Assembly (NCBI GenBank): GCA_001244265.2
Contig: CDLV01000004.1
Span: 2,480,001-2,544,000 of the forward strand
Origin: Microbotryum violaceum
Taxonomy: Eukaryota
Length of the DNA stretch: 64,000 nucleotides
Direction of reading: 5' to 3'
Position 1 is the stretch's first letter. Every line of letters starts with the position of its first letter. The notes under the pieces were generated by a model. That model made no database searches, was not told where the DNA came from, and was given only the letters and a program-made list of their open reading frames with translations. Position numbers and translations under genes: made by a program. Shown one piece after another: positions 24,353 through 49,939 of this stretch.

Positions 24353-26795
24353 CACTGAGCGACGTTTTTGGCGGGGAATACCCATTCAGATGGGTATTCC
24401 CTGGGCTGCCGTAGTACCCACGTGACAATGGTATTACTCAAGCAGATGGTATTCCCTTCGGTTTGGGTATTTCCAATTTTAATGGGTAATACCATCCAGA
24501 AAGTCTCAATAGGGGCTCTTTTCGGGAGCGTGATAGAACTTAATTCACATTAGCTTGCTCAATAGGTTATATATCATTAATCACTAGTGCGAGCTCAATT
24601 GGCTTTGGCTTACTCATTAGGGTGTGTATCATAAATTACTAATGCTCGCGTTCATATTACTAATGTTAATGCAGCCATTTTATATTGCATGCCAGATGTT
24701 GTAGTACATATTGTGGTATGTGTGCATTATCTAGCAAGTGTCTACCTCCGTTACCATCTCTGACGTGTAGCCGGATGGTTTGGATCATTGGCGTCCAAAT
24801 CATCCGCAGCTGCCGCGCGTGCTCCGCTTCCTCAAGTCCTTCGAGAGCGTTCCAACTCCTTGACGTCTTCTTCGTCCTGTCCCTGATCCTTGTCTTGTTC
24901 CTCTTCGTTTCGACGGTTGCCAAGGTTTCTCTTGTAATTGATCTGTTGGCTTCTGTTAAAGTTTCGATTGGTCTTCTTGCTTCTTGACGGACCCGGGCCT
25001 CTAGAGCCGGTCATCTGATGCGACCGCAAGGAAACATGTCGATTCTGCAAGGGCCGAGGAAGAAGTGATTGGTCAGCGCGCAAGCGAGCGCACAATCAAG
25101 GTAAGGACCGGCGCGTGTTACTTACATACTTGACGATTCCTATTGCTTCGAAGCAGCATGTTCCTCCACAATAGTGTAGGTGCTTGTTCTGGCACAGACG
25201 AGTCTGCGCGCGTCCTTGGGATGATGTTCTTTGGGCAGTTGCTAGCTGTGAGACCATTCCAAGCCAATCTCCGCAAGCGGCCCATACACCTGGACCGGAA
25301 CAGGTGTTCTAATCTCTGCCACTACTGCATCACCTACTGGGTCAAGGAATGTTACAAGTGGTGCAGGGAAGTCAGAGCTAGTCGGTGGTCGGGTTCTGCT
25401 TGTTGAAATTGCCGGCGCCTACGCAAAGCTGATCTTAAGGGACATTGTCAGTTTGCTCGTGCTTGCAAGTATACTCACACAAGCTCATATCGCCTTTGTC
25501 GTTTAGTACGTACATGCCATCCGCATCGAGGCACTTTCTGGCTGCAGGGAGTGGACCGAGGCGACACGTTGGCGAAAAGTTGGCCGATTTAGCCCGAACC
25601 TGAGCCCGAACGTGGCGAAGCACACCCTTGAGTCAGAACAATTACTCCAAGTTCAGCTCACCATGCCCTTCCCATTCGGAATTTAAATCTCCTCGTCATT
25701 CCCGGATGCAGATCCTCCCATTGCTGAGCTTCCGTGTGGCAGGGGACAGAAAGGTGGGTGGGAGAAGGACTGAACACGTGAACGGAAAGAGGCAAAGGGA
25801 GAAACGGAGGCGCACGCGCGGGCTTTGCTCAGGCTCACATAGCTTGATTAGATTATGAGCTACTGTCATTAATGTGCACGACTAACTGAGAAAATGTCCG
25901 CGACTACGCCCATTGCTCCACGATTTTTCGCCCAGTCTTCTCCCGGACTCTCAAACGTGGTCGGCGCTCAGATCGACAACACGGCGCTGTCAAACGACAC
26001 ACAAGCCTCTGGCAGCGTCTCAAGTAGTAACTCGCATATTCAATACATGCGGTCTTACACCTTACACATAGCCAATTTCATCGAATAGCATGGATCTTGA
26101 TTGCTAAGTTGCCATGGAGCGGCTCAACCGTTAACGGTCACGCGTGTCGCAAGCAAGGCTTGGCAGTTACTACAGGACGCAGTGAATCATTGTTAGTCAT
26201 GTTCGACTTAAGGAGCACAACCTTCTTGCGATGTGAATTATCTGACCTCTTCTCTGTGAGCTGATGCACCTGAGTGCGGATGCTGCCTTGCAAATGGCTT
26301 GTTCGCGGTTTCCTCGCTTCTCTTATCTCATCAGTGTACTGGCACTGAGGAAGTATCCCTAGTGCAAGCAGATGGAGCTCGAGCACATGCACAAGACAAC
26401 TCCCAGGCGCTCCCTCGTGAACGCGAAGGAGCCGATCGTGTCGAACGTTTTGGTCATCTTTTGGCGATTTATGAGTTCCGATAGGGGGAGCAGGTGCGCG
26501 CATTCGCACCTGATTGTGCCAGGTGGACCTACGACCCTGACATTTTCCTATCGCTTCACAGAACTTCCTGCTTGGGAAGGTACGGTGGCTTGGTTTGAGC
26601 CACTTGCAACCCGTCTACGATGCGATCAAACAGGCCCCAATTGCCAAGCCGACGCCAAAGCGGCAAAAGCGGAAGGCTGTGTCTCCTGTAGGAGCGCAAA
26701 AGCATCAGAACTTGTGCTTCACTTAAGTTCAACATGCTTCAGGAGCAGTCGAGATTGTGGATCTGCGGTGCATCCTGGCCTCAGCTGGTCGCATA
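24353..26795 (+). mobile_element. CACTA/EnSpm-like element, left part (CACTGAG terminus, subterminal GGTA(A/T)TACC-type repeats, degraded transposase 3' portion)
   Basis: CACTGAGCG..TTTTTGGC at 24353 matches the terminus at 61904 (reverse); repeats at 24370-24495; reading frame GAVEIVDLRCILASAGRI runs into the Copia insertion and continues at 45264 on the minus strand. Confidence 0.6.
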
Positions 26796-29700
26796 TGTTA
26801 TTGTAGGAGCGTCTCTAGTTACGTGACGCCGATAGATGACCTATTGTGAGATAATGGGTCGCTAAAGGTCAATCGACTGTAACAGAGCGACTAGGCGAGA
26901 TGTGATATCGAGTGCGTGGTGGAGAAGAGAGAAAAACAGCTAGGCCAAAAAGACGCAATCTCATGTAAACAACCAGCCGCCTCTGATGGTCCCCGCACAA
27001 CACCCGCGCGCCCGCGCCACTGCTAAGACCATAAGTCCCTCTGGACCGCAGACCCCACTAATTTCCCACAACACTCCCACTGGTCAAGGCTCCAAGGGAC
27101 ACCATTCCCATACCCTCACGATGAAGTTCGAACAAGTTGCGAGCGAGCGGCTTTGTAAGAATATCCGCAGTCATCGCTCCTGTCTTGCAATACTTGATTC
27201 GAATATCGCCAGCCGTAACTCGTTCTCGGATGTAAAAATGATGCACATTGTAGTGCTTCGTCCTTCCGTGATGAGCCGGGTTGAGAGCGATTGCGATCAC
27301 CGCTTGGTTGTCCTCCCAGATCAGTGTAGCCTTAGGTTGTTCTAGCTCGAGATCCGCCGCCAATCGCCGAAGCCACATGGCCTCCTTTGCTGCCGCGGAA
27401 GCCGCCAAAATCTCAGCCTCCGTAGTCGAAGTTGCAACCATCGACTGCTGTTTGCTTTGCCAAGAGATCGCAGCACCTGCCAAAATCGAGACGAACGCTC
27501 CAATCGACTTCCCAGTCGACATGTCGTCTCCCCACGAGGCATCGGAGTAAAGCTCGAATACCGTAGATCCTCCGTGGTTGAACTTCAGTCCCCAGTCAAC
27601 AGTGCCTTGCAAGTAGCGGATGATACGCTTCACCGCGATCCAGTCGGCCTGGGTAGGAGCCGAAACCTTGGACGCTGCCGCACGAACCGAAGTGACGATA
27701 TCGGGTCGAGCTCGATGCGCAGCATACTGCAGCGCTCCCACTGCTGACTGGTACAGAGCCACGTCGTCGAAAGGATCCGTAGAATGTTCGACATCCGACC
27801 TTGGCTCCATGGGGACTTTCACCGGGTGCTTGGATACTGAACCTCCTCCATACATGGCAACGAGATCCCTGATGTACTTGGACTGATGCACGAAGATGTA
27901 ATCTGATGTACGCTCGAATTCGAGACCCAAGAAGAGCTTCACTGGACCGAGGCATTTGAGCTTGTAGACTTTGTTAAACGCTTCGATCTCCGAATCCAGG
28001 AATTCTTGGTCGTTCGAAGCAACCATGCCGTCGTCCACGTACAGCGTGATGTAGATAAACTTCTCATCTACTCGCTTGACGTAAAGGCAGGAGTCAGCAT
28101 CAGATCTCTTGTAGCCGCGCTCGACCATCAGGGAGTTCACAGCTGCGTTCCATTCTCGAGGAGCTTGCTTTGTGCCGTACATCGACTTGACAAGACGGAG
28201 GGCTTGGCCGGTTTGAGGGCGATCCCAACCCTTGGGATACTTCATATAGACCATCTCCGTCATCGTTCCATTCAGAAACGCAGAGTCGAAGTCAAACTGC
28301 TCGAGAAACAGTCCCTGGGCGGCGGCAGTGCCAACAAGGCTGAGGATGGTCGATGGGCGTGCAACAGGGGCGAACGTTTCGTTGTAGTCAATGCCAGGAC
28401 GTTGGGCAAACCCTTGCGCAACCAGTCTGGCCTTGTAACGAGTCACCTCCCCTTGAGCATTCTCCTTTCTGGTAAAGACCCACTTCGACCCGAGAGCTCG
28501 AGCGCCACTTGGAAGATCCGAATCAATTAGGACTTGATGGCGAGCCATGGCATCGAGCTCAGCTTTGATAGCTGCGATCCATTTGTCTGCTTCGGGGCTG
28601 GCCATTGCTTCCTCGTAGTTGCTGGGTACTGGAGGAAGAGAGACCGACATCGCAGAGCCATACATGACTTGTTGCTCCGCGTCCCGACGTTGACTACGAG
28701 TACGGTGTGGAATCTCGTTGTTAGCGTCGATCTCCTCATATCTTCCAGGGTTCCTTCCCTTAACGGCGGGATCTCCATACTCCCATCGAGGACGGTTCTG
28801 ACGGGCAGGTGGCATCTGCTCACCGTCTACCTGATCCTGAAGTTTGTCAACGACTATCTCGTCGTTATCGACAGGACCCTTCTCTTCATCTGGCCCCACA
28901 GGCAGAGTTGTGACCTCCGGTACACCAACCTGCTCTGATTTGTGTTCCAAGACCGAAATGTCGCGCGTCACAATGACTTTGTGGTCCGAGTCGGGATCAA
29001 CGAGCACACGATAGTTATACTCGCTATCGTATCCGATGAATATCCCCTTAACCGAAGTCGATTCAAGTTTGGATCGCTTTGACTTCGGAACTTGCGCATA
29101 CACGGTTGATCCAAATGGACGAAAGTGCGAGACCTTGGGTTTCTTGCCATAGAATACTTCATAGGCGGTTTTACCCTCCAACTTGGCGTGTAGAATTCGG
29201 TTGGCAACAAATGTGGCGTACGCCAACGCATACGACCAATACTTCCATGACAGCTTGGAGGCTGCAAGGACCGCACGAACGATCGCCATCAACGAGCCAT
29301 TGAAGCGTTCTACTGTTCCATTCTGTTGCGGGCTGTATGGTGCAGAGGTCTCATGAAGGATACCTTGACTTTGGAAATCCGCGCCAATGAGCTTGTTTGT
29401 GAATTCGGTACCATTGTCCGTACGCACGCGCTTGATTTTCCGACCAGTCATTTTTTCAACTCCTTGTCGAAATGCGATCCATACTCGAGTGACTTCTTCA
29501 GCCGACTTCGTCTTCAACGGGAACGTCCACTTCGCAAACGAGTACTGGTCTACAATAGCCAGATATGCCTTTCGACCTTGGAAATCAACTTGATCTTCTG
29601 CAACGAATCCGATGTCCATGAATACGCGTTGAAGAACGTCGGTGACCTGAGTAGCCAACTCTGAGAACTTCGATGCGCGAGACTTGGAACTGATGCAGGG

Positions 29701-49934: not shown

Positions 49935-49939
49935 GGTGA

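Follow-up and report, generated by a model that had tools for sequence, protein, structure and literature searches.

Crossed target-site duplications and LTRs point to a 13.8-kb inversion between two inverted Copia elements in Microbotryum violaceum

Inversion of DNA by exchange between transposable elements has been a textbook mechanism since the work on Ty and Galileo. Inversion 2z3 of Drosophila buzzatii arose when two Galileo copies recombined ectopically (Delprat et al. 2009, PMC2775673); it is a megabase-scale rearrangement, polymorphic in nature, for which both the inverted and the standard chromosomes were sequenced. Ty1-Ty1 recombination has been studied in Saccharomyces cerevisiae (PMC9879454), where the isolates studied in depth yielded no same-arm exchange between inverted repeats. 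In chimpanzee endogenous retroviruses, high LTR-LTR divergence in young elements flags inter-element recombination or conversion (PMC1779541), the cases there usually being deletions or conversions between direct copies.

The locus described here resembles 2z3 (PMC2775673) in having opposite copies at both breakpoints, exchanged target-site duplications (TSDs) and chimerism of both copies. For 2z3, uninterrupted DNA carries the target once; here such a site is seen for breakpoint 1, and it may be a paralogous sequence. The locus differs in that the element, with its 5-bp TSDs, belongs to the LTR retrotransposons rather than to Galileo, that chimerism is deduced from LTR pairs instead of parental copies, that one assembly and one of two empty sites are available in place of both chromosome arrangements, and that the segment concerned is 13.8 kb of transposon remains. 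Compared with the Ty1 study (PMC9879454), this would be a natural product, in another organism. The diagnostic logic is that applied to the chimpanzee elements (PMC1779541), namely that LTRs are alike at insertion and that unlike LTRs in a young element mark a recombinant; in contrast to those cases, the reciprocal partner adjoins in inverted orientation, which makes the whole event reconstructible.

The window (the whole 64-kb stretch of DNA analysed) is a transposon nest containing Helitron, LINE, Gypsy and three Copia elements, and an Rfam scan of it returned nothing. The third Copia likewise has no TSD. The features on which the argument turns are as follows.

26791..26795, plus strand: GCATA, left TSD copy of parent element X, identical to the overlap at the empty-site joint described below
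26796..31464, minus strand: Copia copy A, 4669 bp, chimeric, with a 3' LTR of type X and a 5' LTR of type Y
26796..27073, minus strand: 3' LTR of copy A, type X, with 2 differences from 45265-45542, both 1-bp indels
31186..31464, minus strand: 5' LTR of copy A, type Y, with 2 differences from 49656-49934
31465..45264, no strand: segment between the copies, probably inverted, 13,800 bp, with Helitron remains, a solo LTR and unclassified repeats
45265..49934, plus strand: Copia copy B, 4670 bp, chimeric, with a 5' LTR of type X and a 3' LTR of type Y
45265..45542, plus strand: 5' LTR of copy B, type X, from the LTR alignment
49656..49934, plus strand: 3' LTR of copy B, type Y, from the LTR alignment
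49935..49939, plus strand: GGTGA, right TSD copy of parent element Y, from the flank sequence

Both copies are Ty1/Copia elements by domain order. Copy B has an uninterrupted gag-pol frame (45547-49671, 1374 codons), in which Pfam places Retrotran_gag_2 at residues 73-215, gag_pre-integrs at 432-501, rve at 518-618 and RVT_2 at 889-1112 (E 4.7e-59), with integrase ahead of reverse transcriptase (RT). RVT_2 is the Copia-type RT model, and the Ty1/Copia polyprotein runs gag, protease, integrase, RT. The LTRs, 278-279 bp, are direct repeats within each element and read TGTTG...AACA in element orientation, with a TG start and a CA end. The stretch after the 5' LTR resembles the complement of the initiator-tRNA anticodon loop, and we take it to be a putative primer-binding site; a tRNA gene scan of the window found none. 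Aligned in opposite orientation, 26796-31467 and 49934-45262 are 99.36% identical over 4674 columns, and copy A differs from copy B at 29 of 4671 aligned columns. The polyprotein frame of copy A is disrupted by a 1-bp deletion at 30435 that is private to this copy, the extra letter being present in the contigs of all four sequencing runs compared. Re-reading of the sequence, together with the LTR alignment, gave the same coordinates as the earlier note for both copies and all four LTRs.

Neither copy is flanked by a matching pair of target sequences. The flanks read GCATA[A]TCACC ... TATGC[B]GGTGA, and the first and last five letters of the segment 31465-45264, TCACC and TATGC, are the displaced TSD halves. 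Reverse-complementing this segment in silico, a check proposed in the earlier note, yields GCATA/GCATA and GGTGA/GGTGA, both perfect; the chance of two such 5-mer matches is ~1e-6. A 5-bp TSD is the norm for Copia, and the two elements show one only once the segment is re-inverted.

The LTRs are crossed as well. In the four-LTR alignment, 10 of 279 columns are variable, of which four are singletons and six (13, 31, 34, 59, 191 and 192) are informative, and all six pair 26796-27073 with 45265-45542 and 31186-31464 with 49656-49934. The crossed pairs stand at a distance of 2 each, versus 8 for each of the four other pairs. The six-site crossing described earlier is thus borne out, and the converse pattern, in which the LTRs of one copy are mutually closest, is contradicted by the distance of 8 within copies.

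These observations are best explained, taking the sequence as assembled, by a real inversion through exchange between two inverted Copia elements, to which we give a probability of roughly 0.78. Two slightly different Ty1/Copia subtypes would have entered a transposon-rich region in head-to-head orientation, with 13.8 kb between them: parent X at target GCATA on the minus strand, and parent Y at target GGTGA on the plus strand. Later non-allelic homologous recombination, probably as a crossover in break repair, would have inverted all DNA between the exchange points and turned both copies into chimeras that carry an LTR of either type and a flank from either original target. From this pattern we infer a reciprocal crossover, and one that took place in the organism rather than in the assembler. 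The earlier note had read the locus in the same way, as an exchange within inverted copies that flipped the intervening DNA, with a mis-joined assembly as its alternative; the swapped TSDs, the crossed LTRs and contigs carrying an empty site all support the exchange.

The empty site was found in public sequencing runs. The 21 runs listed are all represented by short-read contigs (Logan), with a best share of words of 0.53, and the contigs of four were compared over 20 kb, a span with breakpoint 1 inside and breakpoint 2 outside. Short-read contigs cannot bridge a 4.7-kb repeat, and no run contig links both sides of either copy. In three of the four runs, carrying two organism labels, contigs run from 26795 directly into the opposite strand at 45259, the two sides sharing five letters, those of the TSD (X1, side 48; X15, side 24; X16, side 48); in the fourth, X11 (organism C), where flank cover is thin (depth 15), this joint was not seen. 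A joint sharing five letters indicates that the two flanks were formerly contiguous around a single target copy. Besides the crossed TSDs and LTRs, we thus take it as shown that 26795 once adjoined the reverse complement of 45259, and the joint matches the predicted empty site of parent element X. The joint contig stands at ~3x (X1, X15) or ~12x (X16) the depth of neighbouring single-copy contigs; the X flank is itself a low-copy repeat, and with this raised depth the observed empty site may be a paralogue. The joint expected of a simple insertion, 26795-31470, was not among the 15 joints listed, with 106 further joints besides. As a control within the window, a solo LTR of a related family (43857-44193), flanked on both sides by the 5-bp TSD TAGTC, has its empty site in X1, X15 and X16, the contigs skipping 342 letters (337 + 5). 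For the second breakpoint, an exact scan of metagenome contigs with the 38 adjoining bases gave 0 matches, and it is the TSD and the LTRs that suggest the former junction of 31470 with 49940.

If real, the locus would document a natural retrotransposon-mediated inversion with unusual completeness: the two parents, their targets and the two chimeric products would all lie within 23 kb, with one empty site in other isolates. It could be used in teaching, as a marker when strains are compared and, since inverted 4.7-kb repeats are a classic site of orientation errors, to test assembly pipelines. The kind of rearrangement is well known and raises no new question.

An orientation error of this type is the leading alternative, though an unlikely one. 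The true order would then be the ancestral one, with intact X and Y elements bearing their own TSDs, and the 13.8-kb segment would have been misoriented by an assembler that crossed between the copies within their near-identical central 3.2 kb. From the sequence alone such an error is indistinguishable from a real crossover. The central 3155 positions, over which copies A and B show 2 differences, are just where an assembler could have changed copies, and the flanks are repeats by contig depth and hence harder to assemble. Among the 29 differences, three are 1-bp indels within short runs of bases; with the deletion at 30435, absent from all other copies in the four sequencing runs, they suggest a lightly polished long-read consensus. 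Against this, the window is free of any N and carries several ~4.7-kb transposon copies intact; a gap-free path through three Copia, Helitron, LINE and Gypsy elements is consistent with a long-read assembly whose reads usually spanned 4.7 kb, and assemblers seldom invert segments given spanning reads. Real inversions of this sort are, moreover, common in transposon-rich regions, to judge from the literature, including PMC2775673 and PMC9879454.

The distribution of internal differences bears on where the exchange may have occurred. Of 13 internal differences between copies A and B, 11 are clustered at 27292..28029 (48700-49437 in copy B; clustering P = 3e-7), and the 3155 bp beyond hold the other 2. 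Set against the 4 differences in 558 positions of the same-origin LTR pairs, this central region is the more alike (Fisher P = 0.006, or P = 0.06 with substitutions only), which hints at homogenisation after insertion. The near-identical 3.2 kb may mark a conversion tract tied to the exchange, an idea that is weakened if the 1-bp indels are sequencing errors. Synonymous and non-synonymous differences number 6 to 6 and are uninformative. With the inversion as the preferred reading, the exchange point may fall anywhere between the LTRs. When the differences are polarised with the third Copia as outgroup, the derived states switch neatly between element positions 4109 and 4173, and assigning all of them to lineage X would narrow the exchange to 64 bp (A 27292-27356 / B 49373-49437). 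This switch is not claimed as a mapped exchange point, being valid only if lineage Y has no derived states.

The same central similarity could reflect repeated exchange. It is very unlikely that the copies act as an active inverted-repeat switch, with both orientations among cells or strains, conversion keeping the central 3.2 kb alike and the ends distinct, and the TSD-less third Copia joining in the reshuffling of a region that may recombine little. Still less probable is that both orientations persist in the population or culture through repeated exchange and conversion, the assembly representing one of two isomers: 4.7-kb inverted repeats of 99.4% identity are established as good recombination substrates, and the centre (2/3155) is more alike than the same-origin LTRs (4/558), but the LTR and 3'-end differences remain unhomogenised, and the significance falls away with substitutions only. 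An inversion linked to transposition, in which a replicative or hybrid-element event places a second copy, in inverted orientation, in a fresh target site, would by our own reasoning and the discussion in PMC2775673 give the same flank pattern a[ ]t' ... a'[ ]t, but can be set aside as highly improbable, since it predicts identical, non-chimeric copies (PMC2775673) where the LTRs here are crossed at six sites, and since LTR retrotransposons integrate cDNA made via RNA and form no cointegrates.

Reading frames across the former junctions were also examined. Both rebuilt empty sites do give open frames, as had been noted earlier in favour of an inversion, of 52 and 99 codons stop to stop, the first having no start codon ahead of the junction. 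Their evidential value does not hold: at 3000 random window positions the best spanning frame of six reached at least 52 codons in 97.5% of cases and at least 100 codons in 83%, and wrong joins, with each copy excised in place, gave up to 155 and 170 open codons. This argument was therefore dropped. Pfam searches of 17 ORFs in the four flanks returned nothing better than E 0.048, and the suggestion that recognisable genes were split was rejected on this basis; no disruption of a recognisable host gene is seen. Between the copies, Helitron remains extend over about 34.8-35.3 kb and 37.7-43.0 kb, and, because the inverted segment consists of transposon remains only, an effect on host genes is not expected and the event was probably neutral.

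The two inverted elements bounding the 13.8-kb segment 31465-45264 are Ty1/Copia elements, because Pfam finds in them gag, integrase and RVT_2 (Copia-type reverse transcriptase), in that order.

26796-31464, minus strand: copy A, Ty1/Copia element
45265-49934, plus strand: copy B, Ty1/Copia element

Copia-type elements move through RNA. The copies lie in opposite orientations, differ in 29 of 4671 aligned columns (99.36% identity by BLAST) and have LTRs of 278-279 bp that start with TG and end with CA. Copy B carries an uninterrupted frame of 1374 codons (45547-49671), and the frame of copy A is broken by a 1-bp deletion at 30435.

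Neither copy has a target-site duplication of its own: the 5-bp flanks of A read GCATA (left) and TCACC (right), those of B TATGC (left) and GGTGA (right). Reverse-complementing 31465-45264 by script gives both rebuilt elements perfect duplications (GCATA/GCATA and GGTGA/GGTGA), two 5-letter matches with a chance probability of ~1e-6. The LTRs are crossed likewise: the four-LTR alignment has 10 variable columns, of which four are singletons and six split the LTRs into two pairs across the copies, 26796-27073 with 45265-45542, and 31186-31464 with 49656-49934. Each crossed pair differs at 2 positions, and every other pair at 8. The exchange of duplications and LTRs described in the earlier note, and their pairing on re-inversion in silico, is therefore borne out, correct to the base.

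The simplest account is that a parent element X would have inserted into GCATA on the minus strand, and a second, Y, into GGTGA on the plus strand, 13.8 kb off and head to head with it. Homologous exchange between their internal regions would then have inverted the DNA between the exchange points, leaving two chimeric copies. In the relevant passages of Delprat et al. (PMC2775673), Galileo made inversion 2z3 of Drosophila buzzatii by ectopic recombination, as shown by copies that were oppositely oriented and chimeric and had exchanged their duplications; A and B display all three features. The same outcome is drawn for inverted yeast Ty elements sharing a chromosome arm in a figure legend (PMC9879454), and is stated for inverted elements in a passage of a general review (PMC8232201). 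Events of this kind are well known, and this one adds a further example without a new mechanism. It is a neat case in that a single stretch shows the parents, the targets and the products, two of each, and one empty site has been observed elsewhere; the flipped DNA is transposon debris.

That empty site comes from public sequencing runs, of which a search found 21, all of them short-read contigs, with three coded organism labels between them. Four were compared over 25800-45799: X1 and X15 (organism A, two studies), X16 (organism B) and X11 (organism C). Three of the four contain a contig in which 26795 runs into 45259 on the opposite strand, 5 letters being common to both sides; the shorter side of the joint measures 48 letters in both X1 and X16, and only 24 in X15, under the 31 required by the tool. 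Run X11, where this flank is scarcely covered, is without the joint. The joint matches exactly the predicted empty site of X, in which a single GCATA links the left flank of A to the reverse-complemented left flank of B. Contig depths, crude by the tool's own warning, are higher in the joint contig than in adjoining single-copy contigs (187 against ~60 in X1 and 2206 against ~600-1200 in X15, ~3-fold; 475 against ~40 in X16, ~12-fold). The flank at the joint is probably repeated at low copy number, and the empty site observed here may belong to a paralogue rather than to the orthologous locus; paralogue or not, it shows that the two flanks (26795 and 45259) belong to one continuous sequence. 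As a positive control, contigs of X1, X15 and X16 skip a solo LTR at 43857-44193 with TAGTC on both sides. The perfect duplication and the clean skip of 342 letters (337 plus the 5-bp duplication) identify it as what is left of an inserted element after reduction to a solo LTR, and this insertion is missing from those isolates. The LTR is of a related family, that of a third Copia in the window (54047-58979), and the contigs skipping it are at about single-copy depth. In each of the four runs, summed contig depth over the Copia body exceeds that of single-copy sequence by a factor of tens, so the family of A and B is abundant, and X and Y are probably two subtypes of it.

On the sequence as assembled, we put the probability of a real inversion at roughly 0.78. 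The window passes without gaps through many long repeats, which implies long reads, and long reads normally fix orientation; both points favour a real event. An orientation error by the assembler, under which the attachment of flanks to LTRs would be identical, is rather unlikely. In its favour, A and B are nearly identical at the very place where an assembler would change copies, their flanks are repeated sequence, and 1-bp indels, one of them private to copy A against all four runs, suggest a lightly polished consensus. Other readings share the small remainder. A transposition-linked origin, a poor fit to elements moving through RNA, is rejected since A and B are chimeric: by the relevant passages of PMC2775673 it would produce this flank pattern too, but with two copies identical to each other.

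Given a real inversion, the exchange is located between the LTRs, and only this much is claimed. Eleven of the 13 internal differences between A and B fall in the 738 bp adjoining the 3' LTR (A 27292-28029, B 48700-49437), against only 2 in the remaining 3155 bp (clustering P = 3e-7). Same-origin LTR pairs carry 4 differences in 558 bp (Fisher P 0.006 against the centre; 0.06 without 1-bp indels, which are possible sequencing errors). As the centre has fewer differences than these pairs, there are hints that it was homogenised after insertion, as would follow if the crossover was accompanied by a long tract of conversion. Polarised with the third Copia, B carries the derived states in the 5' part of the element (5' LTR through position 4109) and A carries them in the 3' part (position 4173 through the 3' end); if all belong to lineage X, the exchange would lie within the 64 bp between. 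Among the 12 internal substitutions (27292-29281 and partner sites in B), 11 are transitions and 8 are in CG dinucleotides, 4 of those 8 in TCG/CGA, a pattern which we take to resemble methylation-linked or repeat-targeted C-to-T mutation.

Reading frames rejoined across the rebuilt empty sites, also offered by the earlier note, fail as evidence. The frames exist, but span only 52 and 99 codons from stop to stop; of 3000 random window positions, 97.5% had 52 codons or more in the best of six spanning frames and 83% had 100 or more, and the longest open frames across wrong joins, with each copy excised in place, were 155 and 170 codons. Among 17 ORFs of the four flanks, the best Pfam match was no better than E 0.048, and neither these nor the frame controls give any sign of gene interruption.

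By Pfam and sequence comparison, the window is a transposon nest.

~19.9-22.0 kb: LINE-like reverse transcriptase and endonuclease
21.8-23.1 kb: Gypsy protease
34.8-35.3 and 37.7-43.0 kb: Helitron Rep and PIF1-helicase remains, inside the inverted segment
35445-35595: 25-bp tandem array
35758-36594: ~340-bp internal repeats
51.5-53.1 kb: Gypsy integrase with chromodomain
54047-58979, plus strand: third Copia, ~80% identical to A and B

Every above-cut-off Pfam match in 1-64000 is to a transposon, with no recognisable host gene in the window, including within or adjoining the inverted segment, and tRNA and Rfam scans of the 64 kb gave zero matches; the region may represent a compartment poor in genes and full of transposons. 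The third Copia has broken frames, LTRs ~98-99% alike, a 5' LTR with an internal duplication of ~97 bp, and flanks (GAAAC left, GTGGG right) that do not match as a duplication. It may be another recombinant, with no partner found within the window.

Between the labelled organisms, contig comparison shows the Copia family to be much more alike than the DNA around it, which could reflect recent common activity, transfer, or the comparison of paralogues. Organism C contigs differ at 1/502, 2/1077, 4/444 and 7/1177 letters on the Copia body (27319-31139), and at 15/610, 39/785, 27/389 and 8/432 on the adjoining Helitron and unclassified DNA (31740-41020). Finally, 33800-36500 is a very abundant short repeat beside a Helitron fragment, where summed contig depth is very high in each of the four runs (~150,000 at its highest in X15, against ~600-1200 for single-copy DNA) and the contigs show many small skips and loose ends.
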